Origin: a virus
Strand: one strand, 5' to 3'
Length of the DNA: 36,614 nt
IMG/VR virus record: IMGVR_UViG_3300018026_000029
Program-made: the position numbers and the translations under genes
In this document: positions 1 through 21,053 of the stretch, in pieces
How the letters are laid out: each line of letters begins with the position of its first letter
Position numbering within the stretch: position 1 is the stretch's first letter
The notes under the pieces: generated by a model
Seen by the model: only the letters and a program-made list of their open reading frames with translations
What the model was told of the DNA's origin: nothing
Database searches by the model: none

Positions 1-900
1 ACCGCCCAGGAGCTTTACCTCTCCCACTACCCCAAGGAGTGGGGGCAGGACAGGCTGGGGGACTGCTACGAGGCCGCCCTGGACAGCCTGAGGGGGAAGG
101 TCGAGGAGCACCAGGGGGAGACCAAGCAGGCAGGGGAGCGCCATGGCGGGCCAGTGCCTACAAGGGAAGAGGCGGAGAAGGTACGCAGGTTCCTTCAGGA
201 GCGGATTGGCCCCTCCGCAAAGGTGATGGTGGTAGGCTCTACGGCCGGGGGAACACAGGGCCCGGGCTCCGACATAGATATCCTCCTGATGCCCCCCGAG
301 GGGGTCAATGTCAACGACTGGTGGATTGAGGAGCCCCTGAACATAGAGCGGGCGATGACGGAGATGGGGTATAGGTTCGACCATTCCCCGATGACGGCCG
401 AGGTGCAGTGCGAGGTCTACCAGCACAAGGCAACGGGCATAGAGGTAGACCTGTTCTATGGGGAGCCGTGGAAGGGTGCCTCCATCTGGAAGCAGGGAGA
501 GGAAAACATGGACAGGAAAACAGCAGGCGAGGAGGCAAGGCTCCTGGAGTCTATCCGGGGCACGGACAAGGACATGGCTGGGTCGAAGCTGTCGGGCTTC
601 TGGCACGATGGCCCGGCGACCTGCATGGACTGCGTCCACAGGACCCCCCACTCCCAGAGGAAGGACGGCACGCAGGCAGACTCCTGCAAGCACCCCGTGG
701 TCATGGCGGACCCGGAAGTCCAGGACAAGAAGCTACCGGACGGTACTATAGAGGTCGATGCCGACGACTGGTGCAGGTTCGCCAGGAAGCCCCAGAAGGG
801 GGGCGGGGGGGAGGAGAAGGCCAGCGGCCAGCCCGAGAAGCCTCCCCGCAAGGCGAGCATCGGCTCTATCTACATGAAAGTACTGGGCTCTATGGACTAG
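1..900 (+). CDS. Pol-beta-superfamily nucleotidyltransferase (minimal NTase fold) with a C-terminal Cys/His cluster. The frame is open from nt 1, so the gene may be 5'-partial. The first in-window start is GTG at 154.
   Basis: Translation has the NTase signature 'VMVVGSTAGGTQGPGSDIDILLM' (hG[GS] followed by DxD) and a later acidic strand 'IEVDLFYGE'. Downstream is a Cys/His cluster 'CMDCVH...CKH'. Frame 1 has no stop codon between nt 1 and 154. Confidence 0.6.
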   Translation, partial: TAQELYLSHYPKEWGQDRLGDCYEAALDSLRGKVEEHQGETKQAGERHGGPVPTREEAEKVRRFLQERIGPSAKVMVVGSTAGGTQGPGSDIDILLMPPEGVNVNDWWIEEPLNIERAMTEMGYRFDHSPMTAEVQCEVYQHKATGIEVDLFYGEPWKGASIWKQGEENMDRKTAGEEARLLESIRGTDKDMAGSKLSGFWHDGPATCMDCVHRTPHSQRKDGTQADSCKHPVVMADPEVQDKKLPDGTIEVDADDWCRFARKPQKGGGGEEKASGQPEKPPRKASIGSIYMKVLGSMD

Positions 901-946
901 GGAGCAACCCTCCGTCAGGCAGTAACATCCACTAGGAAGGTGCAGG

Positions 947-1237
947 ATGGGCGGCAAGCCTAAGGGGGTAACCATAAGGGGGGTAAGGTTCCGCCCAGGG
1001 GAGGTGGACTGGGAGGATGCCCATGGCGTCTCCAGGGACGCCCTTCCCGACTTCGATGCCATCCGCAACGGCGCTACCGGCTTCGTAGGGGCCAAGATAA
1101 CCTCCGCAGGCCTGATAGGCAAGGTAGGCAACTACCTTATAGTCATCACGGAGTATGACGCCGGTGACCTGGAGTCCACGGAGTTCGACTACACCCTCAT
1201 CCCGCTCCGCCCCAAGACCGCAGTCCGCTACCACTAG
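947..1237 (+). CDS. Hypothetical 96-aa protein.
   Basis: ORF with an ATG preceded by GGAAGG. It is co-directional in the operon and has normal amino-acid composition. Confidence 0.45.
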   Translation: MGGKPKGVTIRGVRFRPGEVDWEDAHGVSRDALPDFDAIRNGATGFVGAKITSAGLIGKVGNYLIVITEYDAGDLESTEFDYTLIPLRPKTAVRYH

Positions 1238-1309
1238 GCATCTCCTAGACTTTCCATTTCTTAACCAGGGGGCACCCTGGCCGCAAGGAGGCACCCCCAT
1301 ACCTTTGGC

Positions 1310-3253
1310 GTGCAAGGGCAACGGATGTCCCCGAACCTTAACCCGCTCCTGATACCCAGAAGAAGGGCAGCCCCGCCGCCCGCTGGCCCGCTGCCGGGGT
1401 TCGTGCCCCTGGGCTATGACTCCAAGACAGCATGGGAGGAAGTCTCCCTCTCGGAGCCTGCATACCACCTGCTCGGCGGCATCCTGGAGAGCGATAAGGA
1501 CATAGCGTCCTGGCTGTCCAACGAGCAGGCGGAGGACGCCCCTGCCATCATGGGCCTCCTTTCCGGCAAGAGGATAGCCGTCATAGACATGGTCCGTGTG
1601 GCCTATGACAGGAGGGGGGAGGGGCTCGGGGCCAAGGCATTCAACCGCCTCCTGTGGAGGGCCAGGCGGGCCAAGTGCGATGCCATACTCCTGCTGTCCG
1701 GCGTCTATGAGAAGCAGCGTAGGGGCTTTAACATAACCAAGTTCTGGGAGGCAAGGGGGTTCGAGAGGATAGGGCAGACAGTCGGGGCAGTGGACAAGGG
1801 CGAGAAGCCCCGTAAGCTGCCCCTTATGGTACGCTGGCTCAAGCCTCTTCCCAAGACCGCCAAGCTGATAGAGTACGGCCAGCTCAAGAACATCCTCAGC
1901 GAGCTGATGGCGGACGTGGAGGGTAACCTCCCCACGCCTGACCTCAGGATTGTAAGCCATACCCGCCCTACCTGGGGGGGAAGGTGCCTGTGGACGCTCG
2001 GCAACCCCAACACTGTAATAGAGATACAGAAGTCCGTCACCGCCGACGAGAGGAGCTTCCGGCGCATCCTGGCCCACGAGCTTTGCCACCACGAGCAGTA
2101 CCTCGTCTACTGGTCCGTGTACACCCCCCGGAACTTCAAGTTCATGACCAGACTGGAGGGGGGGCACGGCAGGGTTTTCCGCAAGATAATGGACAGGTGG
2201 AACGCCAGGCACGGCAAGGGCTTCGTCACCGTCACCTCGGACAAGGACATCCTGTACGAGTTCGAGAGCAAGCCCTTCTTCGTCTTCGTCCAGCGCTTCC
2301 TCGGCGGCCGCCCCATATGGCAGGCCTCCATCCGCCTGACCGACAGGCAGCTCAGGTTCATGTCCGGCAAGAGGCAGGGGGACTACAAGCTGGTCCAGAC
2401 CGACGACCGCAGGTTCATAAACGCCCCGGTGATAGGCTCCGGCAAGGGATGGCAGTACATCCCCGTGGAGGAGCACGAGTGGGAGGAGGCCGCCATCAGG
2501 CTATGGGAGCAGCCCGACCTGCGCATGCGGTGGGACGCCAAGCCCCCCGCCACCAAGGAGGAGGAGCAGGCGCTCCAGAGGCAGAGGGACGAGGAGGAGA
2601 GGGAGGCCCGCAGGAGGCGCTACGAGGAGCTGGCCGCCAGCATAGGGAGGCACGGTATGCCCCCCACCACGGCAGCCAGCAGGGACACCGCCCCTACCCC
2701 CGAGGTCCTGGAGGAGGCGAGGCAGATAAGGGCGGAGGAGAGGGAGGGGGACAGCAGCAGCGCCCAGCTCATGGCGGGCAACTGCGGCAATACCGCCACG
2801 GCCGCCGCCGACAGGTTCGGCTGGGACATAGAGTCGGGCATCTACATCCACGAGGGCAGGGGGCAGGACCATACCTGGAACATCCTGGCGGACGGGACGG
2901 TAGTGGACATATCCCATGACCGGTTCGGGGAGCCGGACATCGCCGTCGCCAGGCCGGGCACCACGGAGCACGCCCGCTACCACCCGTACTGCTGGGCCTA
3001 CAAGCCCCAGGAGGAGGCGGACGCCTGCCCGGTGTGCAACCCGCCTGGCGCGATGGCCAAGGATATGGCCAAGGCAGGGGACTCCCACAAGCAGACCCCG
3101 CACAGGGAGAACGAGTTCCCCGACCTGGACGAGGGCGAGGCCGTCGGGGGGTACGGTACCCAGCCCGAGTGTGTCGAGGGCAACAGGACGGGTCTGGGCA
3201 TCGAGGAGCTGGCGAGGCAGGTGGAGATGACGGAGGTGCTGGATGGGACATAG
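1310..3253 (+). CDS. Three-enzyme fusion protein: N-terminal GNAT-type acetyltransferase, SprT/WLM-like zinc metalloprotease, and C-terminal transglutaminase-like Cys-His-Asp protease core followed by a zinc ribbon.
   Basis: GNAT motif A: 'VRVAYDRRGEGLGAKAFNRLL'. SprT-like HExxH: 'RRILAHELCHHEQY'. A charged linker 'EEEQALQRQRDEEEREARRRRYEE' separates the domains. TGase-like core: 'GNCGNTATAAA' (GxCxxxA), then 'HTWNILADGTVVDISHD' (His, Asp). Zinc ribbon: 'CPVCNPPG'. Confidence 0.7.
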   Translation: MQGQRMSPNLNPLLIPRRRAAPPPAGPLPGFVPLGYDSKTAWEEVSLSEPAYHLLGGILESDKDIASWLSNEQAEDAPAIMGLLSGKRIAVIDMVRVAYDRRGEGLGAKAFNRLLWRARRAKCDAILLLSGVYEKQRRGFNITKFWEARGFERIGQTVGAVDKGEKPRKLPLMVRWLKPLPKTAKLIEYGQLKNILSELMADVEGNLPTPDLRIVSHTRPTWGGRCLWTLGNPNTVIEIQKSVTADERSFRRILAHELCHHEQYLVYWSVYTPRNFKFMTRLEGGHGRVFRKIMDRWNARHGKGFVTVTSDKDILYEFESKPFFVFVQRFLGGRPIWQASIRLTDRQLRFMSGKRQGDYKLVQTDDRRFINAPVIGSGKGWQYIPVEEHEWEEAAIRLWEQPDLRMRWDAKPPATKEEEQALQRQRDEEEREARRRRYEELAASIGRHGMPPTTAASRDTAPTPEVLEEARQIRAEEREGDSSSAQLMAGNCGNTATAAADRFGWDIESGIYIHEGRGQDHTWNILADGTVVDISHDRFGEPDIAVARPGTTEHARYHPYCWAYKPQEEADACPVCNPPGAMAKDMAKAGDSHKQTPHRENEFPDLDEGEAVGGYGTQPECVEGNRTGLGIEELARQVEMTEVLDGT

Positions 3254-5906
3254 CCCTGTTCCCGTTCCCAAGGAGGCGGTGGTGGGGCAGGTCTACCTCC
3301 TGCACTTCCTGGGGGAGGGCCTTGCCCACGGGGCGCAGGCCCGCACCCGGCACTACCTGGGGTGGTCCGAGGACGCGGAGTCCCACATAGCCCAGCACAT
3401 GCGCGGCACCTCCGGTGCCAGGCTGATGGAGGTAGTGAAGGAGCGCGGCATAACCTTCACCGTGGCAAGGGTCTGGGACAACGTCACGAGGGAGTGGGAG
3501 AGGAAGCTGAAGAACGCGGGCGGCCTGAGCCGCTGGTGCCCCGTCTGCAAGGCAGAGGGCACCATCCCGAAGTCGCGCCAGAGGACGAGGGCCGAGGTGC
3601 CTGCACCGCCCCCTGCACCGCCTACAGGCCCGGACTACGCGGGGCCCGAGGAGAGGGCGGGGGAGGACTTCGGCAAGGCCTCCGCATCTCACAGGCTCCC
3701 CAAGGGCGTGCGGGTCACCGTCAAGAGGGAGCGTCTGTCCGGCGGGAGCGACTGGTACATAGGGCACATCTGGAAGGACTACCAGTACGCGGGCCACTGC
3801 CCCGTCTATTCCGAGCTGCCGTCCAAGGCCCGGGAGGCGGCCATCGACTGGGCATGGCAGATGTTCCCGGAGGAGCACCCTGGCGGGGAAAAGGTAGCCT
3901 ATGACTACAAGCAGATGTTCCGTACCATCCTTTCCGAGCTGGGGGCCCTGGACAGGCTGGCGGCCCGCAAGGCCGACGTGGAGATAAGCGCCTGGGTAAA
4001 CTGGGCGAAGCGCGTCCTCCAGAAGCGCGACAGGATAACCTGGTTCCTCCGCCTCGGGCAGCTCAAGTGGGCGGACTACCTCGCCGATGCCTACCAGTGG
4101 TACAAGAGCCCTGGCTCCAGGGCGGAGGAGGCCAGGAAGTGGAAGGAGTGGATAAAGGCCAAGGCACAGCAGGAGGAGCCCCCTGCTACCCCGGAGGGGG
4201 CAGTCTCGACCCACATGGGGGCTGTCATGGCAAGGCTGGAGCACTACCTCAGCCTCCCCATCCCCGAGATACAGGGCACCGTCTTCCTGCGCCAGCAGCC
4301 AGGGGAGATACTGGACAGGTTCCATAGGCTGGAGAAGGACTGGAGGGACAGGCAGTCCCACCTCCTGAGGCCGCACCCGAGGGACGAGGGCAACGAGGCG
4401 GACGAGGGGGACGAGATAGTCCTGGAGTTCCCTGACGGCTGGGCATGGTGGAGGCTAGGCAGGTCTTACTGCCCCGAGGAGGCCCGTGCCATGGGCCACT
4501 GCGGGAACGAGGCCGCCGGGCCCGACAGGCCGGACGACCGTATCCTGAGCCTGAGGCATAAGGTAATCGTGAACAGGGAGACCTTCTGGGAGCCCCACCT
4601 CACGTTCATCTGGGACGATGACGGGCTGCTCGGCGAGATGAAGGGCAGGGGGAACGAGAAGCCTGCGCCGAGGTACCACCCCTATATCGTTGCCCTGCTC
4701 GAACGCAAGGACCTTGTCTTCGGGATAAAGGGCGGGGGCTACCTGCCGGGGAACAACTTCTCCCTGGAGGACCTGCCCCCGGAGCAGCAGGAGAGGGTGA
4801 AGAAGGCCAACCGCAGCCTGGTCAGCGCCTCGGAGATGTACAGCGAGTCCCGTGGCAGCATGACCGACGAGCTTCTCCAGAGGATTGCGGACAGGACCGT
4901 GCTCAGGAAGGACCAGTGGAGGCCGGAGGAGGAGGCCTTCGTGGTGGATAAGTACGCCAACCCGGAGTGGTTCATATCCACGGAGGGCAGCCCGTGGCTG
5001 GAGGCCCAGATGATGCTGGCCCGTGGGGGGTTCGGCAAGCACCCCAACCACCAGGTCGTGGAGGAGGGGATAAGGGACCTGCTCTCCGTCCTGGACGACA
5101 GGGAGAGGAGGGCGGTGCTGGAGAGGATGCCCCCGATTCCCGGGCCGCCCCTCCTCTCCCGTGCCCCCAGCCCCGATGCCCCCTGGCGCAGCGAGGACCT
5201 GCCCTCCCTGTTCATGGAGGAGAGGAACGACCATGCCCTGTGGTCGTACCTCAGGGGGGCGACACGGATACTCAGCGCCCCCGAGCAGCAGGGGGAGTAC
5301 GAGAAGCTCTGGGGGATACTGGCCGCCGCCTGGGAGGCAGGCATCACCAGGGAGATGCGCCAGGCGGCCCTGGACAGGGTAAGGGGCTTCCTGGGCAACA
5401 ACAGGCGGAACAATGTGCGCACCAACGATGCCTCCAGGGTAGCCTTCCCGGAGGCCAGCGACCCGGACTTCTGGAGCAAGCCCGTCCTGGTGGAGGTAAG
5501 TATCCAGGACGCCGTGCATCTTGCCTCCCCCTTCTCCCATGAGGAGTCAGGGTACTCCGGGGGCGAGGACACGGCCATCTACATCGACGACTACTGGGAG
5601 ACCAGCCACGGGGCCGTCCTGTACGATGCCAGCGCACCCTACAAGAAGCTCACCCTCCCCTCCGACCAGAAGAGGGACCTCGACCTCAAGATGGACAGGG
5701 AGTCCGAGGGCAGGGAGGGCAGGTCGGTCAGGCAATGGCACGAGGACTTCCTCAGGGGCCGCCCCTACGAGTACCTGCGCTGGCTGCGGGAGGAGGTACC
5801 GGCCATCTTCGAGCAGGAGATGACGCCGGAGGCATGGGACGAGGGGAAGGCCAGGGAGGCCCTGATGGTGATGCTCCCCAGCCTCCGCTCCCAGGGGAAG
5901 GGCTAG
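3243..5906 (+). CDS. 887-aa multidomain protein: N-terminal GIY-YIG-like nuclease domain, CxxC ribbon and Pro-rich linker, then copy 1 of the novel WAWW/MGHCGN module, then a ~350-aa tail of unknown function.
   Basis: GIY-YIG-like region: 'QVYLLHF...RHYLGWSED...HIAQH...REWERKLKN'. Zinc ribbon: 'CPVCK'. Linker: 'PAPPPAPPTGP'. Module hallmarks: 'YDYKQMFRT', 'DGWAWWRLGRSYCPEEARAMGHCGN', 'RILSLR', 'EPHLTFIWDDDG', 'LGEMKGRGNEKPAPRYHPYI', 'GGGYLPGNNFSLEDLP'. The ATG overlaps the previous stop by 11 nt. Confidence 0.7.
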   Translation: MGHSPVPVPKEAVVGQVYLLHFLGEGLAHGAQARTRHYLGWSEDAESHIAQHMRGTSGARLMEVVKERGITFTVARVWDNVTREWERKLKNAGGLSRWCPVCKAEGTIPKSRQRTRAEVPAPPPAPPTGPDYAGPEERAGEDFGKASASHRLPKGVRVTVKRERLSGGSDWYIGHIWKDYQYAGHCPVYSELPSKAREAAIDWAWQMFPEEHPGGEKVAYDYKQMFRTILSELGALDRLAARKADVEISAWVNWAKRVLQKRDRITWFLRLGQLKWADYLADAYQWYKSPGSRAEEARKWKEWIKAKAQQEEPPATPEGAVSTHMGAVMARLEHYLSLPIPEIQGTVFLRQQPGEILDRFHRLEKDWRDRQSHLLRPHPRDEGNEADEGDEIVLEFPDGWAWWRLGRSYCPEEARAMGHCGNEAAGPDRPDDRILSLRHKVIVNRETFWEPHLTFIWDDDGLLGEMKGRGNEKPAPRYHPYIVALLERKDLVFGIKGGGYLPGNNFSLEDLPPEQQERVKKANRSLVSASEMYSESRGSMTDELLQRIADRTVLRKDQWRPEEEAFVVDKYANPEWFISTEGSPWLEAQMMLARGGFGKHPNHQVVEEGIRDLLSVLDDRERRAVLERMPPIPGPPLLSRAPSPDAPWRSEDLPSLFMEERNDHALWSYLRGATRILSAPEQQGEYEKLWGILAAAWEAGITREMRQAALDRVRGFLGNNRRNNVRTNDASRVAFPEASDPDFWSKPVLVEVSIQDAVHLASPFSHEESGYSGGEDTAIYIDDYWETSHGAVLYDASAPYKKLTLPSDQKRDLDLKMDRESEGREGRSVRQWHEDFLRGRPYEYLRWLREEVPAIFEQEMTPEAWDEGKAREALMVMLPSLRSQGKG
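3898..4790 (+). repeat. Protein-level tandem module, copy 1 of 4 (YDYMEMF / WAWW / MGHCGN / EPHLTFI family).
   Basis: Shares an ordered set of conserved blocks with copies 2–4. It also shares short conserved DNA words with them, for example 'gactacaagcagatgttc', 'tgggcatggtgg' and 'gccatgggccactgcgggaac'. Confidence 0.6.
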
Positions 5907-8900
5907 ATGGAGAAGCTCTCCTACGACTACATGGAGATGTTCAGGGGCATACTCTCCGACTTCCCCGGCCAGCTAGAGCACCTGAGGAGGGAGGTCAAGT
6001 GGGCCAAGACCCTCCGCAAGCAGGACCGCATCACCTGGTTCCTGCGCTGGCTCAGGATAGCGGTATACGACGGCATAGCCCTTACCCTGCACGGGGACAG
6101 CGACCCGGCCAGGAGGGAGCTGTCCAGCAAGTACGCCCGCCTTATGGCCGCCGAGATGCAGCGGATAGGCTGGTCCGACAGGGACATGCTCTACATCAGC
6201 CTGCACAGCGCAAAGGACAGCATCGTACACTTCCTGGGCATCCCCTCCCCTGCCATCCAGAACCTTGTCTGGGGGAGGCAGACCCCCGCACAGCTACTAG
6301 GCAGCTTCGAGGAGGCGGAGAACGACTGGAAGGGGGCGGACAGCGACAGGGCGCTCGCCCCGCACGAGGACGACCAGGTAGCCCTGAGGTTCCCCAACGG
6401 CTGGGCGTGGTGGCTGCTGGGGAGGGGCTACTGCCCCGAGGAAGCCAAGGCGATGGGGCACTGCGGGAACGTGGCAGGGAGGGACCTGCCGGGGCAGCGC
6501 ATCCTGAGCCTCAGGCGTCCCGTCAAGGGCCCGGGCGGCCGGGAGGCCTGGGAGCCCCACCTTACCTTCATCCTGCATATTGCCCACAAGGCGCTGGGCG
6601 AGATGAAGGGGCGCGGCAACGAGAAGCCTGCCGCCAGGTACCATCCCTACATCGCTGCCCTCCTGGAGAGCCCCGTGGTGGAGGAGATATGGGGCGGGGG
6701 GTACCTGCCCGAGAACAACTTCAGCATGGCGGACCTGCCCAGGGACGTGCAGGAGGGCCTTGTCCAGAAGAAGCCCGCCCTGATGACCTTCAGGATGAGG
6801 CTGGCGAAGGAGGGTGCCCAGGGGCCGAGCGAGGAGCTGGTCAGGGACATCACCTGGAAGCTGAGCATGGGGGCTGACGACTGGTCGCCCAGGCTGCGGG
6901 CGTTCAGGATAGGCACCTGGAAGAGCGCCATAGACTTCGCGGGGCAGTTCGGCACGGAGGAGACAAGGCAGGTAATCCAGCTTGCGCTGGACGGGGAGGG
7001 CATACCGACCTCCTCCGATATGGGGGAGGACGAGTATGTCCTGGAGGCCCTGAGGGCCCTCTCCCCCGACAACCTGAAGAGGGTAGTAGACTACACCCGC
7101 TGGACGGACCCCAAGGCGCTGGAGTGGTGGGCCAAGAACCGGGGCAACCCGGATACCCCCGAGGGCATCGCCCAGATGATAGGGAGGATGGACCTTCCCA
7201 ATATCAGGACGAACCTCTATAGCTGCTGGTACAGGGGGATGAAGAACGGCACCGTCTTCCAGCTCCTCCATGCCTGCTGCAACGAGATAGAGAAGCTAAA
7301 CCCCGTCACCCCGGCAAGCACGGAGCTGGCATGGGGAGACCCGTCCCCCAGGGCCGTCCAGACATATACCCGCAGCCCGGACAGGCTCCTCCTGGCAACG
7401 CCCCTCTGGGAGACCGTGCCCCTGGAGTTCGCCGCAGCCGTGGCCGACGACGAGGAGAAGGACCCCAGGGAGATGCCCTACAGGTACGAGGAATGGTCGG
7501 GGCTAGAGCTGAAGGCTCCCCCGGACGGCTGGGGGGACTTCAGCAAGAGGACGGTGAACGAGGAGGCCAGGTTCTTCTTCCATACCGGGGACGGTATACC
7601 GGAGCAGCTTGCCAGCCTGGATATCGCCAAGGTAGCCTATGACTACATGGAGATGTTCCGTGGCTTCCTGGCAGACTTCCCGAGGTTCCAGCCCACGGTG
7701 ACCAACACCATAAGCTGGTGCAAGCGGGTCCTCAGGAAGCGCGACCGCATCACCTGGTGGCTGAGGCAGATGCGCCTCTTCTGGTACAACCTGGTAGCCG
7801 ACAAGGCCTCGGCCTGGCGCTATGCCCCTGCGACAAACTGGCCCGCCACGGAGGTTCCGGCCGACAACACGGCCATGATAGCGCTGGCAGACAAGTACCA
7901 GGCGCTCTTCGACAGGGAGGTGCGCTCCCTGGGTCCCCTAGGGCTCGCTGACCGGTCGAACTACCTGGACCTGGGGATGTTCGCCAACTCCAACCAGAGC
8001 ACGATGGAGCACCTGCTCAGCCTGCCCGTCCCAGAGATACAGAACCTCGTGTGGGAGAGGCAGACCAAGCAGGAGCTTTTCAGGACCCTCCTTAACTACG
8101 AGACGAAGTGGAAGGAGGAGAGCAAGGGGGTCCTCCGCCCCCGCCCAGGGGACAGGCCTGTCATTACCTTCGGGGACGGATGGGCATGGTGGCTCCTCGA
8201 CCGTGGGTACTGCGAGGAGGAGGCCCGTGCCATGGGCCACTGCGGGAACGTCAACGGGCAGAACCGCCCCTACGAGCGCATCCTCAGCCTGCGGAAGTCG
8301 GTGCGCAGGGGGGGCACGGAGTATTACGAGCCGCACCTGACGTTCATCCTCGACACCCGCGACAGCTCCCTGGGGGAGATGAAGGGCAAGGGTAACAACA
8401 AGCCCGCCCCCCAGTACCACCCCTATATCCTCAGGCTCCTGGAGAGCGACATAGTGAGCAAGGTGAAGGGCGGGGGCTACCTGCCGGAGCATAACTTCAG
8501 GCTGGGGGACCTCAGCGAGGAGCAGCGGGAGGAGCTTGCCCAGAGGAAGCCCTCCATGGCCGCCTTCTATATCCGCCTCAAGAGGGAGGGCCCCAGCCCG
8601 GCCCTGATAGCCGACATCGGCAGCGCCTTGCAGGTAGGGGGCTGGGACCCCGACCTCCAGGGGTACGTCATCAGGCAGTGGGAGAACATGTCCTCCCTGG
8701 CCGAGGACATAGGGAACGACACGGCGAAGTGGATAGCCAAGGTGGTGGGGGGCGGGGAGTTCAACCGACATGATAGCCCAGACTTCGAGTACGGCGACCG
8801 CTCGGAGGCCATGAAGATGGCACTGGGTGCCTGCTCCGACAAGACCCTTGACCTTGTGGTCAGGTGCCTTGCCTACAAGTACCCCACCAACCTGGTGGAG

Positions 8901-14300: not shown

Positions 14301-14596
14301 TCCCGGCCATCCTGCGGGATGGCCTGGTGCCGAAGACATACCCCAAGCTCCCCCCCAGCCAGTGGGAGAAAGGGGTATACCTTACCAGCAAGGAGGGCAT
14401 ACCGTTCTGGGAGAACATCCTGCGGGATGACATGAAGTGGGGGGGGTTCCACGACCAGCTCTCCGTCCTGGAGGTCTCGCCTGAGGGGCTGGAGCTGGAG
14501 TACGACCGGCAGGGGACAGGGGACTCTGGCGCGAAGGCGTACATTACCCCAAGGGTCCCGCCAGAGAATATCTCCGTCCTGCGGGGGCCTGTCTAG
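11375..14596 (+). CDS. 1073-aa protein: N-terminal H-Y-E-class (PARP/diphtheria-toxin-like) ADP-ribosyltransferase domain, one HGT-type Tpt1/KptA-like domain, a HAD-superfamily phosphatase domain, and two tandem HVT-type Tpt1/KptA C-lobe-like domains.
   Basis: ART domain: 'VYHGSTHSFEAF' (H41), 'WYGKALYFTDS' (Y61/Y66), 'TYFEIDYNE' (E164). The H–Y–E spacing matches PARP and DT catalytic cores. Tpt1-like blocks 'LLYHGTTKANLPSIMSEGLKP...VVF..VLLELP', 'LYHVTFRKNLRRILREGL...NVYLMT...KLVVLEVSPKGL...VPPGNI' and 'LYHVTFSKSVPAILRDGL...GVYLTS...LSVLEVSPEGL...VPPENI' align to KptA 'LYHGT...GL...HYVHLS...PVILTVKA...VWLT'. HAD motif I: 'WIGVDLDGTLAEE'. HAD motif II: 'VRVFTAR'. Confidence 0.75.
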   Translation: MAQDLTAISTPGTTTQGPAFKAWFRNSVVRNPDGSPRPVYHGSTHSFEAFSLKPGNPENWYGKALYFTDSPEDVGRNYATPDSPDLRARIDKRTEQLMDRLVDELEQELGEALNWNDPRKDRLFQDAKSQATKELMGPGAISYKLYLRIERPVVIRQGGGTYFEIDYNERTGRETGSGMRLYRAVMKAAGQLNLPNSDEIWRQSVSADEGMTEGFTAQQFDENLRHSDAMMEARDWDATNEGEFLSLVYRLAGYDGIIMEDAGATFHNMGIPPGTRHYIIWNPRQAKSAIGNTGTWSTRTPRLTAGWEEDEGDYGVEDYPQCLGDYEFRTTCVSEGTGEHIQEMLDNAKDCGYSEVKRHCEGLRPWEKENGYAPDGSRKGLTLRHDWAVRYGRGTYRRMPCYFVVWSGIEHVWTRKGAGGQEGWEDWAGRTSSKGAGKSAGKPGKAGLLYHGTTKANLPSIMSEGLKPTVGCYAELWHGRDHNDTSKSNNLAPVVFAAPREHLDDCLLAIFAALSKDFPRTSTEQFFDNAVLLELPADQFTRNRWKRPPRNMKHVESRDYYSTSPVRPIRAITGEELRGFAGYAYQSARQEWFGAYDPESPGRRLAAGKEWPPWIGVDLDGTLAEEQSPFDPLTIGRPVPEMVRKVRQALEDGVEVRVFTARLADKGLRDRIKQAIRDYTREHVGRELDSTNEKDPGLREIWDDKARRVRKDEGTFALRGTERQPSRADRYLREMWSPGDGAWFEYHCWEDPKSCDANLWYHSHQRVTVLGKADADGWHKGWDGSMMKDRAEAGAPRAYTVRFQDGYERTAGEDELMTSRRGFYRPDPPRPPKAFALRGSIIVEEPLYHVTFRKNLRRILREGLRGDQEPNWPFDSSPGNVYLMTRDGLDFWMDRYEDLLREMGSRSKLVVLEVSPKGLMFQEDIQGTEDSGTEAYRTGFVPPGNIHANWRRTASLGKAAFRRRAPLYHVTFSKSVPAILRDGLVPKTYPKLPPSQWEKGVYLTSKEGIPFWENILRDDMKWGGFHDQLSVLEVSPEGLELEYDRQGTGDSGAKAYITPRVPPENISVLRGPV

Positions 14597-14618
14597 CCGT
14601 TCCCTCTAATAGAGACAC

Positions 14619-17600
14619 ATGGCGATAGCGGACAAGTTCGACCTGGGCTTCGTGGGGAGGCTGATGCGCTCCCGCAACGGCACCGTTGTCGGCACGCTCG
14701 GCGACCTGCTGAAGAGCCCCAGGGCGAGGGACCTCTACAAGGAGGCCCTGGGCGTGCCCGTCATGGTCCTGGACAGGCCCGTGCAGGGGGGCAAGTTCGT
14801 GGACAGCCCCGACCCCAACCTCAGGTTCTTCGGGGCCTGCGGCTCCCTCCGTGGCAAGGCATGCATATTCGTCAACCCCCGCTGGGGGGAGGAGGAGACC
14901 ATAAGGACCCTCCTGGAGGAGGGGGCGCACGCCCTGCGCAAGCTGAAGGGCAGGCCAGCGACGAAGCAGGACATCACGGCCCTTACCTCGGAGAACATCG
15001 GGGAGATGCACGACAGCCTGCCGGAGGAGGTGTCCGCCAAGCAGATGGCGGAGTATGTCCTGAAGACAGCCGCCCAGCTTCCCTCCGTGGCCTTCCGCCA
15101 GGTGTGGCATATCGGCAGCATGGACCCCGAGGACAAGGGGAAGGATAGCCTGGAGGGGGCGGGGCTCAGCATATCCACCCACCCCGAGGAATGGCAGCAG
15201 ATAGCCGAGCTGGGCGAGGGCCCGGTCTGGGAGCTTACGAGGAAGGGCAACAGGTTCCTTGACTTCCACCGCCTCACCAAGGCGCAGCTCGGTGCCATGG
15301 CCGACTGGGGGGCGCAGCAGGGCCTCATAGAGAGGCGGCCCGCCTGGCAGGTCAGGTGGTGGGACAGCGAGGACAACGGGTTCAGGTACGCGGAGACCGA
15401 GACCGAGGAGGAGGCGAAGGAGGAGGCCGGGGCGGTCGGGGGCAAGGTAAGGGCGCTCAGCAGCATAGCCTACCCGACTGACAGGCTGAGGAAGGCCACC
15501 AGGAACCCCCGTGCCAACTCCGTGGTGGCCATGGACCTGCTGGCGACGGTCTATGCCGACAAGGCCCTGGGCTGGGACGGCGTATGGTGGCAGGATACCC
15601 TGGACGTGCCTGGCCTCAGCGCCCCGAGGGGCGTTATCCTCCCCTCCAGGCTGGCAGGGTGGCAGAGGCGGCAGGTAGGCATGGAGGGGATAGAGGACTA
15701 CGGTGCCCCCGGCAGGAGGGTATCCTCGGACAGGAGGTTCATCTGGCAGGGCAGGCATGGCAAGGCCCCGCAGCCCGGCGTCCCCTATTACCATGTCGCC
15801 CCGGCCAGCTACCAGGAGGGCCAGGATATCTACTCCTACGATGCCTACCAGGACGAGTTCGGCGAGGAGCCCGAGTGGAAGTGGGAGGAGGGCCAGATTG
15901 GGGATACCGACAAGGTCTCCCTGCATGACAGCCTGGAGGAGGCAGAGGGCTTCCGGGAGGAGTGGGTCCCCGGTGGCAGGGTCATAGAGGTCGTGTTCCC
16001 CTCCCCGCTGGGGCAGCTAGGCCTGTCCGGAGGGGTGAACGGCGAGGGGTACCCGTTCGTCCGCCATCGTATACCAGGGGGGTTCGTCAGGAAGGTCAGC
16101 AGTGGCCGGAAAACACTGGAGGAGCTTGCCCTGGAGTTCCGTGAGAGGCAGGAGGACTGGTTCGAGTGGCAGGATGACAAGGCGTGCTTCCGGGAACAGT
16201 GCCTTGGCATAGCCAGGGGCCTGGCCAAGTTCCTGACGGAGAACGGCATCCCTGCCGAGCCTTGGCACAGTTACTATTATGACGATGACGGGAAGCCCCA
16301 TAACCACTGGTGGGTCATAGCCGGGGGCAGGGTGGTGGATGTAACGGCCGACCAGTTCCATCCCGAGGACCCCGACAGCTACCGGGTGGTCATAACAAGC
16401 CTGGATGACCCTCACTACAGGCAGAGGAAGGCCAGGCAGGCCGGGACAGAGTCCTCCCCCCAGTCCGTTCCCGCCATGCAGGGGTGGGGCTATGACGAGC
16501 CGTTCCCTGACAGGCACTCGGACTTCTTCGAGCTGGTGGAGAACCCCCACACGGACAGGGGCAGGGAGACCAGGGTGCTGGAGACCGGGGCACCGCCGCC
16601 CGAGGGCGGCGAGGGCAAGCCTGCCAGGGGAGAGCCTGGCCAGGAGGGCACGCTGGTCAGGCCGATGGCGTCCTTCAGGAGCGCCCTCCTGCGCAAGAAG
16701 GCATACAGTATCCTGGCGGTGTTCTGGGTCAAGCTCCAGGGGCGCATCCTGCTGTTCCCCAACAGGTTCCTCAACCATGACCAGATTCTACAGGAGACAG
16801 GCATCCCTGCGGGCGGCCCGGAGTACGACAGGATGCTGCGGGGCAGGGTGTTCATAGACCGGGAGAGGCGGCGGGTGAGGTTCACCCGGCACGGTGGGGG
16901 CTATACCCCCAACGATGTGGTGGAGGAGATTGTCAGCCGCTACCACCTCCAGGACTGGGAGATGGAGGACGAGGGCGAGGCCATGGGCAGGTACGGCTCT
17001 GTCCAGGGCGGGCCCGTGGTCGAGAGGCTCGGCCGTGAGGACATCCCCGAGGCCCTGGAGGTCATCGCCCAGTGCTTCCCCCAGTACGCGGACATCGCCG
17101 ACGTGGTCTCCAGGGACGTCCGGGGGGACTTCAGCCTCTCCTATGGGATGAGGCTGGAGGGCAGGATTATAGGCTGCTACCTCCTGGGCCGCGTGCAGCT
17201 ACCCGAGGAGTACCCCGGCCGCCCCGAGGCACAGGCATACGCAGGTAAGAGGGGCGTGCGGGGGGTGTGCCTGTGCCTGCTGCCCCAGTACCGTGGCAAG
17301 GGGTGGGGGGCAAGGCTTCGGGCCGTCCCGCTCTCCCTGGGGGCGGACTATGTCTGGGGCGAGCATTACAGCAGCCTGGACAACCTCGGCAAGTGGACGA
17401 GCTTCGGACGCAGGCTGCTGTTCGACACGAAGGATGCCAAGGGGCAGCCCTACCATGTTACCGTCATGGACCTGAGGGGGGGGCCGCCGAAGGCCGCCTC
17501 CTCCAGGGACCCCTACCTCTACCATGTAGCGCAGCCGGGCACCCTCGGGAACATAGCGAGGGACGGGCTCCAGGGCGGCATACTGGGCCCGAAGGTGTTC

Positions 17601-20600
17601 CTTACCGAGAGGGCCGGGGTCGGCTTCTGGCGGGGGTACGATGCGTCCGCCCCCGTCCTTCGCATGCGGCGGGACCTGCTGGAGGACCTGGAGCCGGACG
17701 ACTACGGGACACAGGACTCCGGGTCCCCCTGCTACAGCGCCCAGCCCGTGCCCCCCGCCCGCCTGGAGTTCCGGGTGGACACCCCCCAGGGCGAGGCCTG
17801 GAGGCCCGTAAGGTACGCGCTCGCCAAGGCCGCCTCCCAGGGCATACCCTCCTTCAGGGGCCTCGTGCGGGAGCTTGGGGGCATGAAGTACCTCCTGTCC
17901 GAGGTCGATATCGACGAGTTCGACCTGGAGGGGTCGGGGAAGAAGCCCGAGGAGTACATCAGGGGCAAGTTCAACGAGGTGAGGTCGTTCTTCGCCGGGC
18001 TCAGGTACCCCATACCTGTCTACCGGGCAATAAGCGGGGACCGCAGCGAGCTGAGGACAAAGGGCTTCGGCACCTCGTGGTCGATGAGCGAGGGAGGGAT
18101 GGGGGAGCAGGGGGCATACCCCTACGAGGGGAACCCGTCCAGCTACCAGGTCTACTCCTCCCACGTGTCGCCCAGGGACATAAACTGGACCAGCACCCTC
18201 CTGCTGGCCATGGGGAGATGGTGGGACAGGGAGAAGGAGATAGTGGTGCGCAACGGGGCACGGCTCAGGGTCGGCGACGATGACGGCAGGATGTTCGAGG
18301 TGACGGCGTCCTTCGGGAAGACCGCCCTCAATGTCCCCAAGCTGGTCCAGGACTTCGGCGCGAAGCTCGTGGAGAGGTACAAGGCCGACTTCCCGGACGA
18401 CACAAGGGAAATCGACCCGGCGGCCCTAATCAACTCCCTTGTCCCGCTCGACCCTACCGGCAACCATGAGTACGTGTCATGGATAGTGGGCAACTATGCC
18501 CGTGGGGAGCTTGGCGAGTACGATGATATCGAGGCCACCGTCATCCCGCTCATCGAGCGCTACCATGCCCTGAAGAAGACCAGGAACCTACAGCCCCAGG
18601 ACACGAACATCCAGAGGCTACGCGGGAAGGCCGCCCTGGAGGCACTGCTGGCAAGGTACGCCGAGGTAGAGGCGGAGTCGAGGCGGCAGAGGGCCGTCAG
18701 CAGGGAGCAGGCGTTCTTCAGGAAGGGGGAGGCCGAGCTGGTGCATGACGACCCGGAGATGAAGGTCGTCATCCCCGAGACCTGCGAGGCGGCCAAGTTC
18801 TTCGGCGTCAACACGAGGTGGTGTACGTCGGCCGAGAGCAACAACGCCTTCCAGCAGTACCACGAGGAGGGGCCGCTCTACATCGTCCTGCTCAAGAGGG
18901 AGAACAAGAGGTTCCAGTTCCACTTCCAGACGGCGCAGTTCACGGACGAGGCGGACAGGCCGCTCGACATCGAGGAGTGGCTGGTGGAGCACCCCATGGT
19001 GGCCAGGCTGCTCGGGCCCCTGGCCGAGAAGGCCGATTCCGAGTGCGACGAGTGCGCTGGCCATGGGAGCAGCAGGTGCGGGGAGTGCGACGGCGAGGGG
19101 GCCGTGGAGTGCGTGGAGTGCGGCGGCAGCGGGCACGAGCGCTGCAACGACTGCCAGGGGAGGGGAAGGGTCCCCTGCGGCACATGCAACGGCGTAGGCA
19201 TGGCGGGCGGGGGGGAGTGCCCGGCGTGCCACGGCGACCAGTACGAGCAGTGCGGCTCCTGCCATGGGACGGGCAACAAGAAGTGCGAGGAGTGCGACGG
19301 GCGAGGGTCCCATGCATGCGGGAGCTGCGAGAACGGGAGCATAACGTGCGACAAGTGCGGGGGCACGGGCAAGAACCCCGAGATGAACCAGTTCCTCGAA
19401 GGGTGCCAGAGGGCCCTCGCAGGGCCGCTGTCCGTCCCTGCCCTCCGCAACCTCAGGAAGAAGAAGTGGCCAGCGCTGAAGAAGAGGGTCAAGGACTGGA
19501 TAGAGCCCAGGAGGACCCCCGTACACGTCGGCCCCAGGGGCATGGCGTTCCTGCAATGGCTGGAGGGGGTGAAGAGGAGGCTCAAGGGCAAGAGGGGCAG
19601 CAAGACGGCAGCGGAGGGGAGGTGCCAGCACTGCGGGGGCAGCCGCATAGGCATGGCCCTGCACTCTCCCAGCGCTGACACCTACTGGTGCATGGACTGC
19701 AACAGGAACACCGACGTCAGGCGGGAGGGGGTAAGCTGGAGCCTGCGGGACGCTGTATCGAGGTGGGGCGGCAAGACGGCGGCCGGCGAGTGGTGGAGGA
19801 GGTGGAGGAAGACCGAGGTTCTCCCCAAGGGCACGGTCCTCTACCATGGGACGGCACAGGAGTTCCCAGGCATGGACCTTAGCCTGCCTGCCTGGTTCAG
19901 CACCTCCAGGTCGGTGGCGGAGCACTTCCAGTCATGGCACGGGGAGGACGAGGGGAAGCACCGCCTCCTGATGTTCAGGGCGACCAGGCCCATCCGCCTG
20001 CCCCGCATAGATGGCAGGGAGGACCTGGAGAGGATGGAGGACATGTTCGGCCTCCAGACCTCCTACGGGGCCGAGGACATAGTGGACAGCCTCTCCCAGA
20101 GCGGGCTGCCCGGCTGGGTTATCCCCCATAACTACCCGGACGGGGACGACATCCTGCTGGCGGAGACGGACAGCATCGAGTTCACGGGGCAGGAGCCCGA
20201 GGCCGCGGACGAGGAGAGCGGGGAGACGGACGAGTTCGGCCACAGCCTGGAGCTGCCCGGCAAGTGGACGAGGAACGGGGACGGCAACTGGGTCTACCAT
20301 ATGACCCCCGAGGAGATAGCCGAGCGGGAGCGCATCGTGGGGAAGAAGGGTGCAGAGGCTAGTGAGGACCCCCCTGTCACCAAGGAGCTGCTCACCACCC
20401 GCAACCCCAAGGCGATGAGGCCCTACCGCCCCAGCCTGGTCACCACCGAGGGCAACCCCAAGATGGAGAAGGGCCTGTCCAGGGGATACCTCACGGGCGT
20501 CATGCACCTCATGCCGGCCGACAAGAGCGGGTACGGGAACGTCTGCCCCTTCAGCTCGGCGGAGTGCCGCCATCACTGCCTGAACACGGCCGGCAACTGG

Positions 20601-21053
20601 GTGCCGCACAAGCTCCAGTCCCGCATCTACAAGACCAAGCTATACTTCACGGACCGCAAGAGGTTCCTGGAGGAGCTGAGGAGGAGCATCGCCAGGCTGG
20701 CCAGGAAGGCGGAGGAGCAGGGGCTCCTGCCCGCCGTGCGCCTGAACGGCACCAGCGACATCCCCAGCCTCGGCCTGATGATGTCCAGGGAGTTCCCGGA
20801 CATTACCTTCTATGACTATACCCGCATACCCAAGCCCTGGCAGAGGATGAGGGGGAACTACCACCTTACCTTCTCCCGCTCTGGAGATGATGATAAGGAA
20901 GTAGAGGAGGCCTTGGACCATGGGGTTAGCGTAGCCGTGGTCTTCGATACCAAGCCCAATCTTCCGTTACCAGGGGAATGGCCTAAGGGCAAAAGGCAAG
21001 GCAAGAGGGAAGGGGACAGAGACCGGTTTTGTGCTAAAGAACCCCCTGCTTAA
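14619..21053 (+). CDS. 2144-aa giant multidomain protein. In order: transglutaminase-like Cys protease core, GNAT acetyltransferase, Tpt1/ART-fold domain, a 10-unit DnaJ-type CxxCxGxG zinc-finger array, a CxxC zinc ribbon, a second Tpt1-like (LYHGT) domain, and a Cys/His-containing C-terminal region. The last ~40 codons run into a low-GC island.
   Basis: TGase-like core: 'REQCLGIARGLA' and 'HNHWWVIAGGRVVDVTAD'. GNAT motif A: 'LLPQYRGKGWGARL'. Tpt1-like: 'DPYLYHVAQPGTLGNIARDGL...VFLTER...DSGSP...VPPARLEF'. Zinc-finger array: 'CDECAGHG CGECDGEG CVECGGSG CNDCQGRG CGTCNGVG CPACHGDQ CGSCHGTG CEECDGRG CGSCENGS CDKCGGTG'. Zinc ribbon: 'CQHCGG...CMDCN'. Second Tpt1-like: 'VLYHGTAQEF...AWFSTSRSVAEHF...HRLLMFRATRPIRL' (cf. 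KptA 'FLYHGTASRF...HYVHLS...PVILTVKA'). Confidence 0.75.
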   Translation: MAIADKFDLGFVGRLMRSRNGTVVGTLGDLLKSPRARDLYKEALGVPVMVLDRPVQGGKFVDSPDPNLRFFGACGSLRGKACIFVNPRWGEEETIRTLLEEGAHALRKLKGRPATKQDITALTSENIGEMHDSLPEEVSAKQMAEYVLKTAAQLPSVAFRQVWHIGSMDPEDKGKDSLEGAGLSISTHPEEWQQIAELGEGPVWELTRKGNRFLDFHRLTKAQLGAMADWGAQQGLIERRPAWQVRWWDSEDNGFRYAETETEEEAKEEAGAVGGKVRALSSIAYPTDRLRKATRNPRANSVVAMDLLATVYADKALGWDGVWWQDTLDVPGLSAPRGVILPSRLAGWQRRQVGMEGIEDYGAPGRRVSSDRRFIWQGRHGKAPQPGVPYYHVAPASYQEGQDIYSYDAYQDEFGEEPEWKWEEGQIGDTDKVSLHDSLEEAEGFREEWVPGGRVIEVVFPSPLGQLGLSGGVNGEGYPFVRHRIPGGFVRKVSSGRKTLEELALEFRERQEDWFEWQDDKACFREQCLGIARGLAKFLTENGIPAEPWHSYYYDDDGKPHNHWWVIAGGRVVDVTADQFHPEDPDSYRVVITSLDDPHYRQRKARQAGTESSPQSVPAMQGWGYDEPFPDRHSDFFELVENPHTDRGRETRVLETGAPPPEGGEGKPARGEPGQEGTLVRPMASFRSALLRKKAYSILAVFWVKLQGRILLFPNRFLNHDQILQETGIPAGGPEYDRMLRGRVFIDRERRRVRFTRHGGGYTPNDVVEEIVSRYHLQDWEMEDEGEAMGRYGSVQGGPVVERLGREDIPEALEVIAQCFPQYADIADVVSRDVRGDFSLSYGMRLEGRIIGCYLLGRVQLPEEYPGRPEAQAYAGKRGVRGVCLCLLPQYRGKGWGARLRAVPLSLGADYVWGEHYSSLDNLGKWTSFGRRLLFDTKDAKGQPYHVTVMDLRGGPPKAASSRDPYLYHVAQPGTLGNIARDGLQGGILGPKVFLTERAGVGFWRGYDASAPVLRMRRDLLEDLEPDDYGTQDSGSPCYSAQPVPPARLEFRVDTPQGEAWRPVRYALAKAASQGIPSFRGLVRELGGMKYLLSEVDIDEFDLEGSGKKPEEYIRGKFNEVRSFFAGLRYPIPVYRAISGDRSELRTKGFGTSWSMSEGGMGEQGAYPYEGNPSSYQVYSSHVSPRDINWTSTLLLAMGRWWDREKEIVVRNGARLRVGDDDGRMFEVTASFGKTALNVPKLVQDFGAKLVERYKADFPDDTREIDPAALINSLVPLDPTGNHEYVSWIVGNYARGELGEYDDIEATVIPLIERYHALKKTRNLQPQDTNIQRLRGKAALEALLARYAEVEAESRRQRAVSREQAFFRKGEAELVHDDPEMKVVIPETCEAAKFFGVNTRWCTSAESNNAFQQYHEEGPLYIVLLKRENKRFQFHFQTAQFTDEADRPLDIEEWLVEHPMVARLLGPLAEKADSECDECAGHGSSRCGECDGEGAVECVECGGSGHERCNDCQGRGRVPCGTCNGVGMAGGGECPACHGDQYEQCGSCHGTGNKKCEECDGRGSHACGSCENGSITCDKCGGTGKNPEMNQFLEGCQRALAGPLSVPALRNLRKKKWPALKKRVKDWIEPRRTPVHVGPRGMAFLQWLEGVKRRLKGKRGSKTAAEGRCQHCGGSRIGMALHSPSADTYWCMDCNRNTDVRREGVSWSLRDAVSRWGGKTAAGEWWRRWRKTEVLPKGTVLYHGTAQEFPGMDLSLPAWFSTSRSVAEHFQSWHGEDEGKHRLLMFRATRPIRLPRIDGREDLERMEDMFGLQTSYGAEDIVDSLSQSGLPGWVIPHNYPDGDDILLAETDSIEFTGQEPEAADEESGETDEFGHSLELPGKWTRNGDGNWVYHMTPEEIAERERIVGKKGAEASEDPPVTKELLTTRNPKAMRPYRPSLVTTEGNPKMEKGLSRGYLTGVMHLMPADKSGYGNVCPFSSAECRHHCLNTAGNWVPHKLQSRIYKTKLYFTDRKRFLEELRRSIARLARKAEEQGLLPAVRLNGTSDIPSLGLMMSREFPDITFYDYTRIPKPWQRMRGNYHLTFSRSGDDDKEVEEALDHGVSVAVVFDTKPNLPLPGEWPKGKRQGKREGDRDRFCAKEPPA

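Follow-up and report, generated by a model that had tools for sequence, protein, structure and literature searches.

A 21-kb operon of giant mosaic proteins in an uncultivated soil jumbo phage fits the polyvalent-protein class

What do seven tightly packed genes, five of them giant, do for the phage that carries them? We addressed this question for a locus on IMG/VR record IMGVR_UViG_3300018026_000029, a 36,614-nucleotide (nt) sequence with a G+C content of 65% from peat and soil metagenome samples, referred to here in its full length as the window. Its plus strand bears an operon of seven co-directional genes that spans ~21 kb and about 7,075 codons (~7,075 amino acids (aa), ~780 kDa per set): ORF0, a 96-aa open reading frame (ORF), and ORF1 to ORF5 (Table 1). 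We found that it is no new kind of system; judged by its domains, it belongs with the polyvalent proteins of phages and conjugative elements, and its novelty lies at the level of members and modules. We consider it reasonably probable that the operon is a battery of polyvalent effectors serving host takeover and anti-defence, packaged in the virion or made at the very start of infection.

An initial annotation, made from the sequence alone, had described the genes as joined throughout by overlaps or single-digit gaps. The count of seven and three of the junctions hold: an 11-nt overlap at position 3243, TAG followed by ATG at 5907, and TAATG at 11375. The remaining gaps are wider, at 22 nt between ORF4 and ORF5, 46 nt between ORF0 and the 96-aa ORF, and 72–87 nt between the latter and ORF1. 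A JGI contig extending upstream (L019) carries ORF0 in full and, 5′ of it, a divergent gene, so the operon comprises seven genes. Overlapping or abutting junctions, together with the absence of terminator-like sites on the plus strand inside 1310–20000, support an operon, and we infer that the seven genes are a co-transcribed unit.

Domain content and the polyvalent-protein class

Domains were assigned using single-sequence hmmscan (Pfam, NCBIfam), PHROG and profile searches. Four signature domains of polyvalent proteins scored above their cut-offs. ORF0 runs from an InPase domain (PF18823; E = 8e-29, 100.7 bits, cut-off 26.8), most of which lies upstream of the window, through a Pol-beta nucleotidyltransferase (NTase) domain (PF01909; E = 2e-8 to 4.5e-8, 34.8 bits, cut-off 21; window nt ~175–309) to a Cys-rich tail. 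ORF1 carries a SprT-like zincin with the motif HELCHH (PF10263; 26.6 bits against a gathering cut-off of 25.6), which a charged linker separates from a YunG-like domain (PF24585; E = 1e-6, 29.2 bits, cut-off 27). ORF4 begins with an ART-PolyVal domain (PF18760; E = 1e-13, 52.6 bits, cut-off 31.2), of the ADP-ribosyltransferase (ART) type, and includes a tool-supported HAD phosphatase. The Pol-beta NTase, SprT-like protease and HAD phosphatase noticed at first reading were thus confirmed, and the InPase domain, the GP88 domain that closes ORF5 (E = 1e-29) and a threefold repeat in ORF3, all missing from that list, were found here.

The GNAT acetyltransferase that had been reported twice is weak in both places. 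The ORF1 region, which carries RRGEGLG (the motif A pattern being Q/R-x-x-G-x-G/A), matched PF00583 at E = 0.015 (16 bits, below the cut-off of 20.7) and a PHROG acetyltransferase at E = 1.4e-4; the ORF5 region reached Pfam E-values of 0.05–0.1. ORF1 aa 33–179 align to aa 789–937 of the relative P0126 (E = 6e-20), a protein with a precomputed PF00583 match that may lie in this region.

Use of NAD, also proposed initially, is a reasonable prediction given one confident ART-PolyVal domain and four Tpt1/PARP-like domains. In the former, the strand-1 His and strand-2 Tyr motifs (VYH41GS and LY66FTD) are present and conserved in the alignment, and the strand-5 acidic residue was not located. A whole-protein AlphaFold2 (AF2) model of ORF4, built from a fragment multiple sequence alignment, was confident only over aa 13–290 (pLDDT ~90). 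Together, these features assign ORF4 aa 13–310 to the ART superfamily and, within it, to the ART-PolyVal/Tox-ART-HYD2 clade. ORF4 contains three copies, and ORF5 one, of a ~110-aa mini ART domain with the consensus LYH[VG]T..IL..GL..vYL..LEV..D and invariant H, T, G-L and D; AF2 confidence being limited to the segment just named, the folds of these Tpt1-like and mini ART domains are predicted from sequence profiles. A joint profile of the four copies matched the PDB entries of Tpt1 (E = 4e-7), PARP10 (0.012) and DarT (0.018), as well as PARP14/15, and individual relatives of the mini ART domain match the PARP and Tpt1 Pfam models.

How closely do these domains resemble Tpt1? The structure match is confined to aa 92–125, which correspond to the opening beta-alpha unit of the NAD lobe; single-sequence Tpt1 matches cover ~22–45 residues of that lobe (Pfam, 22.1 bits against 26; NCBIfam, 31.7 against 231). 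Membership of the Tpt1/KptA RNA 2′-phosphotransferase family was rejected, with scores far below the family thresholds and no full two-lobe (RNA plus NAD) match. From their sequences, they are best described as minimal domains of the ART superfamily with a likeness to the NAD lobe of Tpt1, and not as Tpt1 orthologues. Five Tpt1/KptA-like lobes had been counted at first; four are supported in this sense, and the fifth, ORF5 aa 1696–1895, is sub-threshold, with an ART-PolyVal match at E = 0.17. In this region hhalign aligned the YHGT motif alone; it is at most a candidate for a further ART-PolyVal domain.

Iyer, Burroughs, Anand, de Souza & Aravind (2017, J Bacteriol 199:e00245-17; PMC5512222) described polyvalent proteins as phage and conjugative-element proteins that combine 2–15 domains of unrelated activities and are predicted to be delivered with the DNA, citing T4 Alt as a model. 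Zincin peptidases form the hub domain of the class, and among its protein-modifying domains H-Y-D ARTs are the most frequent, reaching 12 copies in a single protein; the class further contains GNATs, Pol-beta NTases and InPase, and phage versions lie near late genes (PMC5512222). Later surveys extended the class to jumbo phages and to the NAD+/ADP-ribose (ADPr) network (PMC7824862, PMC9503650). The defining combination of two or more disparate activities is found in ORF0 (InPase and NTase), ORF1 (GNAT-like, zincin and YunG), ORF4 (ART, HAD and Tpt1-like ARTs) and ORF5 (at least eight modules). The origin from phages, plasmids or conjugative elements is likewise in evidence, with relatives in phages only and tail-fibre genes in the window. 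Two of the best Pfam matches, ART-PolyVal and InPase, carry names from Iyer et al. The operon fits the polyvalent-protein definition in its disparate activities, phage origin and signature domains, and its membership of the class appears highly probable.

The operon shares with the proteins of that survey their multi-domain mosaics, signature domains, multiple ART copies, modules that are either fused or solo, and phage origin. It differs in placing six adjacent polyvalent-type genes in one 21-kb operon, in adding Tpt1/PARP-like minimal ARTs to the ART-PolyVal type, and in devoting about half of its sequence to modules without a Pfam family (a ~380-aa module in four copies, an R..W..ExE module and ORF5 aa 1–372); none of the LPD families and no methylase–helicase dyad was detected in it. 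The initial view that no system of this architecture had been described could therefore not be upheld, since the same domain vocabulary, the packaging prediction and the Alt analogy all appear in Iyer et al. (2017).

The closest cultured relative is Tunturi_5 (PP885688; PMC11924767), a 309-kb jumbo myovirus of an Acidobacteriota host from tundra soil. Its gp321 (1362 aa) combines SprT, 2H, three ART-PolyVal and GNAT domains, with 34% identity to ORF1 in SprT and 40% to ORF4 in ART-PolyVal, and its gp273 (1489 aa) combines NUDIX, three ART-PolyVal and GNAT domains; both are annotated only as "MutT/NUDIX hydrolase". The GP88 domain, 43% identical to the ORF5 C-terminus, is there a separate 445-aa protein (gp272). 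Unlike in our operon, SprT and ART share one polypeptide in Tunturi_5, and the genes are scattered in the virion-gene region rather than gathered in one operon. The head-carried enzymes T4 Alt and P1 Dar (DarB/DdrB), which are injected with the DNA, offer a functional analogy: Alt, an ART, modifies the host, and Dar protects phage DNA. Alt is a single-domain R-S-E ART of a different clade, whereas the ART-PolyVal of the operon is of the H-Y-D type, and no sequence relationship of the operon proteins to Alt or the Dar proteins was detected. Packaging was demonstrated by experiment for Alt and Dar and is predicted for the operon proteins.

Delivery, mode of action and alternative explanations

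How might such a battery work? In the scheme we favour, the seven genes would be co-transcribed and translationally coupled, and their products, whether loaded into the large capsid and ejected together with the DNA or synthesised as infection begins, would act in parallel on many host targets. The ART domains (one H-Y-D ART-PolyVal and four minimal) would consume NAD+ in the ADP-ribosylation of host proteins or nucleic acids, GNAT-type and acetyltransferase-like modules would acylate targets, and the InPase, NTase and HAD modules would act on nucleotides or phospho-substrates. The SprT-like zincin, possibly with the YunG-like domains, might release active fragments from the giant precursors or cleave proteins of the host. 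Packaging, injection, catalytic activity, targets and autoprocessing are all predictions, and we put delivery from the capsid at an even chance or slightly better.

The case for packaging comes from relatives and from the class as a whole. Tunturi_5 gp321 sits between head–tail connector and tail genes, gp273 follows a GP88-like "minor head protein", and the homologue of ORF5 aa 1224–1471 in Pseudomonas phage MIJ3 has the large terminase subunit on one side and a structural protein on the other. InPase and ART-PolyVal are found mainly in virion-linked contexts, very large fused proteins that include a zincin for processing match what is predicted of packaged cargo, and P1 DdrB, which carries a zincin domain, is proteolytically processed (PMC5512222).

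The same proteins with the same enzymology could instead stay unpackaged, as an early or middle host-takeover and anti-defence operon acting in the infected cell, an explanation that we regard as possible but on balance unlikely. T4 ModA and ModB are made and act in the infected cell in this way; Alt differs. Several observations favour this explanation or otherwise weigh against the packaged one. The immediate neighbours in the window are an HNH/endonuclease VII-like gene, convergent with the end of ORF5 (2 nt between stop codons), and a CCA-adding enzyme, not head genes, and the tail-fibre genes lie ~10 kb off on the opposite strand. The operon proteins contain no MuF, portal or other known virion-targeting fusion, and no capsid-targeting or prohead-protease motif was identified in them. 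Two stand-alone homologues of the ~380-aa module that we inspected (L017 and L018, phage contigs of 300 kb and 549 kb) have DNA ligase, RNA ligase, RNase H and rIIB-type genes as neighbours, a context compatible with early expression in the cytoplasm and equally with packaging. No family could be assigned to over half of the residues (all of ORF2 and ORF3 beyond a fold-level hint, and about half of ORF5), and the Tunturi paper (Microbiome 2025; PMC11924767) includes no virion proteomics. The check for nearby head genes suggested in the initial annotation gave a split result: the window offers endonuclease and CCA-adding genes, distant tail fibres and one weak major-head PHROG match (E = 3e-5), whereas the homologues in Tunturi_5 and MIJ3 lie near virion genes. 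Packaged or injected effectors in the manner of Alt, the first of the two readings offered initially, remain the best-supported mechanism, with packaging a prediction and the concept already in print.

The second of those readings combined an anti-defence arsenal, which is compatible with packaged effectors, with a likeness to polymorphic toxins, which is not borne out. A bacterial polymorphic-toxin or defence island, with large secreted toxins and immunity genes, would likewise contain ART, peptidase and nuclease-type modules and show cassette polymorphism, and ART-PolyVal is related to the Tox-ART-HYD2 clade (PMC5512222). However, we found no N-terminal secretion or trafficking domain, no RHS or filamentous-haemagglutinin-like repeat scaffold, and no small immunity-like or co-directional ORFs after the giant genes; the enzymatic modules extend along the whole length of the proteins and are not confined to the C-terminus; the surroundings and every relative in the databases are of phage origin; and Iyer et al. 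set polyvalent proteins apart from polymorphic toxins, whose organisation they do not follow (PMC5512222). A bacterial origin is thus very improbable.

We give even less credence to the giant ORFs being artefacts of assembly or gene calling, through chimeric joins or read-through over sequencing errors: every contig of the population appears to break at the same place within ORF0, and the equivalents in the syntenic relative L020 are divided into 17 smaller ORFs, but the former is explained by a strain-level cassette polymorphism and the latter splits fall partly at frame changes within a unit, typical of long-read indels or real decay. Identical 1073-, 1822-, 2144-, 887- and 642-aa products were recovered in independent ENA (megahit) and JGI assemblies from different samples, third-position G+C content (GC3) is 0.88–0.90 across all five giant ORFs, and internal stops are absent. 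Because the products are identical in independent assemblies and GC3 is uniform, the giant ORFs are real and assembly chimeras, a concern raised at the outset, are excluded; the five very large proteins stand as first listed.

If the two unannotated modules described in the next section should be new enzyme families, which is doubtful at present, the operon would rank among the densest clusters of host-modifying enzymes known from any single transcription unit. Polyvalent proteins are regarded as the earliest phage molecules at work in the host and form a reservoir of anti-defence and takeover enzymes, almost none of which has been tested biochemically. Among jumbo phages of the soil Acidobacteriota type, this locus is a compact and well-assembled case with a cultivable relative, Tunturi_5, and it displays module shuffling, fusion and fission, strain-level cassette swapping and two sizeable unannotated domain families.

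Unannotated modules of ORF2, ORF3 and ORF5

Self-comparison resolved ORF3 into three tandem ~600-aa units, each consisting of the ~380-aa module and a variable tail of 210–260 aa. ORF2 contains a fourth copy, flanked by aa 1–213 and a tail after aa 600 to which no family was assigned. The four copies are 38–41% identical to one another (E ~1e-65) and are marked by the motifs GWAWWxLxRxYCxEEAxAMGHCGN, RILSLR, EPHLTFI, LGEMKGxGNxKP, YHPYI and GGGYLPxNNF. A profile search returned 135 homologues at E ≤ 0.001; among the homologues listed, most are stand-alone ~600-aa proteins without a Pfam domain, on contigs of up to 576 kb. The module is conserved as a ~600-aa protein across many phage genomes of 300–576 kb, and the operon carries it four times, with three copies joined in ORF3. 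A tblastn search with ORF3 detected none in Tunturi_5. In a 71-sequence alignment, H108, E179, N188, S201, R203, T220, E232, K234, G235, N238, Y266 and D276 are invariant or conserved, and C176, H185, C186 and H246 nearly so.

Six Cys-His-Asp cores of the transglutaminase/papain type had been proposed initially, of which the YunG-like domain of ORF1 is the only one above threshold, and that of ORF5 reaches E = 0.03. The other four are very probably the four copies of the ~380-aa module, and for these we rejected the transglutaminase/papain-like reading: the candidate catalytic His, H218, falls outside the invariant and ≥90% columns of the alignment, and the core resembles an acetyltransferase fold (Foldseek non-significant). 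In the structural model, the secondary-structure order b1-a1-a2-b2-b3-b4-a3-b5-a4 agrees with GNAT topology. The invariant E232-M-K-G235-x-G237, as placed from the DSSP string of the model, would lie at the b4/a3 junction, the position of GNAT motif A. Foldseek with the module returned nothing significant, the top match being Sas3, a MYST histone acetyltransferase (HAT), at E = 0.26, and no sequence-profile link to GNAT Pfam families or PDB sequences was found. Compared with the GNAT/HAT1/MYST fold, the module has additional N- and C-terminal helical domains and its own YC..E..MGHCGN motif, which may bind metal. We describe it, from the model, as acetyltransferase-like, with its function unassigned. 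A PcfJ-like identity (PF14284) was dismissed, with one of the 71 members matching at E = 0.027, which is noise level.

The GIY-YIG-like nuclease that had been suggested for the ORF2 N-terminus found no backing. The resemblance of VYLLHF..HYLGW to GIY-YIG is by eye only, neither Pfam nor NCBIfam gave a family match in this segment even at E ≤ 1, and its one tblastn match was to an unannotated phage sequence.

The second large unannotated family is the R..W..ExE module of ORF5, ~110–160 aa long, whose invariant elements are Y-R, G..W[ST] and ExE. An exhaustive profile search retrieved 1,985 cluster representatives at E ≤ 0.001, often with 2–5 copies per protein of 1,000–5,005 aa and also as solo proteins of 130–250 aa; profiles of 9 and 46 sequences matched nothing in PDB, and the module matched no Pfam family. 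By eye, the motif fits an R-S-E ART; given the lack of a PDB or Pfam match and the short 18-aa spacing from R to W[ST], we set this aside as speculation. The triple fusion in ORF3, the ~380-aa family and the R..W..ExE family are new. That the first of these two families is a new, possibly metal-dependent acyl-CoA transferase and the second a new minimal ART-like clade is a doubtful conjecture at present.

Elsewhere in ORF5, the DnaJ-type zinc-finger array reported at first reading was recovered with ten CxxC motifs, eight of them CxxCxGxG (PDB matches to BSD2/DnaJ, E = 0.02–0.4). Kinship of aa 1233–1472 with the ~380-aa module was rejected on a negative hhalign comparison. A literature search returned no paper mentioning PF17338/GP88. 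ORF5 aa 1–152, which has a conserved LxEEGAHALR motif, is always at the extreme N-terminus in the giant relatives P0121, P0122 and P0125, whereas other modules move; such a fixed position would fit a targeting, packaging or processing signal.

Table 1. Genes and domains of the operon and annotated neighbouring genes in the window
Feature	Size or residues	Window position (nt)	Strand	Remarks
ORF0		1..900	+	First operon gene, truncated by window start; full length 411 aa on L019
96-aa ORF	96 aa	947..1237	+	Function unassigned; 83% aa identity to copy in syntenic relative L020
ORF1	642 aa; 647 aa from GTG	1325..3253; 1310..3253 from GTG	+	
GNAT-like region (weak)	ORF1 aa 56–150	1490–1774	+	
SprT-like zincin, HELCHH	ORF1 aa 193–296	1901–2212	+	PF10263
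YunG-like C..H..D domain	ORF1 aa 479–541	2759–2947	+	PF24585
ORF2	887 aa	3243..5906	+	
~380-aa module, fourth copy	ORF2 aa 214–600	3882–5042	+	
ORF3	1822 aa	5907..11375	+	
~380-aa module, three copies	ORF3	5910–7001, 7629–8771, 9549–10649	+	
ORF4	1073 aa	11375..14596	+	
ART-PolyVal	ORF4 aa 13–310	11411–12304	+	PF18760
Conserved Cys-rich segment	ORF4 aa 290–420		+	
Tpt1/PARP-like ART domain	ORF4 aa 436–580	12680–13114	+	
HAD phosphatase	ORF4 aa 610–710	13202–13504	+	
Mini ART domain (~110 aa)	ORF4 aa 835–950	13877–14224	+	
Mini ART domain (~110 aa)	ORF4 aa 955–1070	14237–14584	+	
ORF5	2144 aa	14619..21053	+	
Module confined to N-terminus	ORF5 aa 1–152	14619–15074	+	
Shuffled module	ORF5 aa 148–372		+	
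YunG-like	ORF5 aa 515–605		+	Sub-threshold, E = 0.03 over aa 558–592
Further module	ORF5 aa 690–800		+	
Weak GNAT	ORF5 aa 795–955		+	PF13508 E = 0.05, PF00583 E = 0.1; YRGKGWG
Mini ART	ORF5 aa 950–1060	17466–17798	+	
R..W..ExE module	ORF5 aa 1065–1232	17811–18314	+	
Module common to Pseudomonas jumbo phages	ORF5 aa 1233–1472		+	
DnaJ-type Zn-finger array	ORF5 aa 1472–1590	19032–19388	+	
ART-PolyVal-like region	ORF5 aa 1696–1895		+	Sub-threshold, Pfam E = 0.17
GP88 domain	ORF5 aa 1944–2118	20448–20972	+	PF17338, E = 1e-29
HNH/endonuclease VII-like		21056–21451	−	phrog_3322, E = 2e-24
317–349-aa ORF	317–349 aa	21487–22536	−	Weak major-head PHROG phrog_2522, E = 3e-5; no Pfam match
CCA-adding/poly(A) polymerase family		24446–25894	−	PF01743, E = 3e-32; 3 kb beyond endonuclease gene
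Second DnaJ-type CxxCxGxG protein		28546–29598	−	PF00684, E = 5e-6, below threshold; phrog_10079
Major-vault-domain protein	810 aa in full (L003:7446–9878)	34769–36614	−	PF11978 MVP_shoulder, E = 6e-23; PF17795 Vault_3, E = 1.5e-9

Module turnover, phage identity and window neighbours

Comparison of strains and relatives revealed how readily these modules are exchanged. Within the same population, the ~120-aa Pol-beta NTase module of ORF0 is exchanged in other strains for an unrelated cassette of ~340 aa, as seen on comparing window positions 1–330 with L009:1–1455, L011:2–1447 and L019:4253–5488 (minus strand). The cassette boundaries are conserved flanks, with the frame kept: ..SLRGKVEEHQ, cassette, MDRKTAGEEARLLE... 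Population contigs, all but one, end within a few bases of ..PDLETAQELY, just upstream of the cassette; nearly all contigs break in ORF0 because the cassettes differ between strains. Contigs of this population extend to as much as 126 kb and consist of small hypothetical genes.

At a greater distance, L020 is a syntenic relative with 60–80% aa identity across the common modules. The order InPase, 96-aa ORF, ORF1, ORF2, units, ART-PolyVal, HAD and GP88 is kept there over the 17 smaller ORFs, some of whose splits may be indel errors. L020 is without the Tpt1-like, YunG, GNAT and R..W..ExE modules; a SET domain is found in their place, and unit 3 is largely gone. A fragment corresponding to ORF3 aa 1511–1581 lies inverted at L020:12022–12228 (minus frame), and just the final 115 aa of ORF3 remain, in an ORF of their own. 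Both features point to an inversion or deletion that occurred recently within the ORF3 array of L020. Modules of ORF4 and ORF5 recur elsewhere, in other orders, in the giant relatives P0121–P0145, which also carry SET, NUDIX, PARP, ParB or AbiEii-NTase domains. These comparisons show mosaicism and shuffling, and the module repertoire changes rapidly from one related phage to the next, a pattern expected of effectors engaged in an arms race.

The operon belongs to an uncultivated jumbo phage from peat and soil metagenomes. A megablast search of the 21-kb region against phages gave no match. With tblastn, similarity in isolate genomes was confined to phages, mostly jumbo: Tunturi_5, XacN1, Xoo-sp13, CM1/RAS14, Salicola SCTP-2 (440 kb), and Pseudomonas MIJ3 and its relatives. 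The host is probably a member of the Acidobacteriota.

The remaining genes of the window encode HNH/endonuclease VII, a CCA-adding enzyme, collagen-like tail fibres, Ig-like proteins, a DnaJ-finger protein and a major-vault-protein-like protein (Table 1). Tunturi_5 gp279 is likewise a tRNA nucleotidyltransferase near the GP88 and polyvalent genes of that phage. The DnaJ-type finger occurs in two genes, ORF5 and the one at 28546–29598. The major-vault-domain gene adjoins the collagen-like tail-fibre genes and has no PHROG match; its product is split or shortened in some strains (538 + 267 aa; 523 aa). Beyond the window end, L003:4145–5116 and 6478–6975 carry an RNA ligase (PF09414) and a PP-binding acyl-carrier-type protein (PF00550). 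The stand-alone homologues of the ~380-aa module on L017 and L018 also have RNA ligases nearby.

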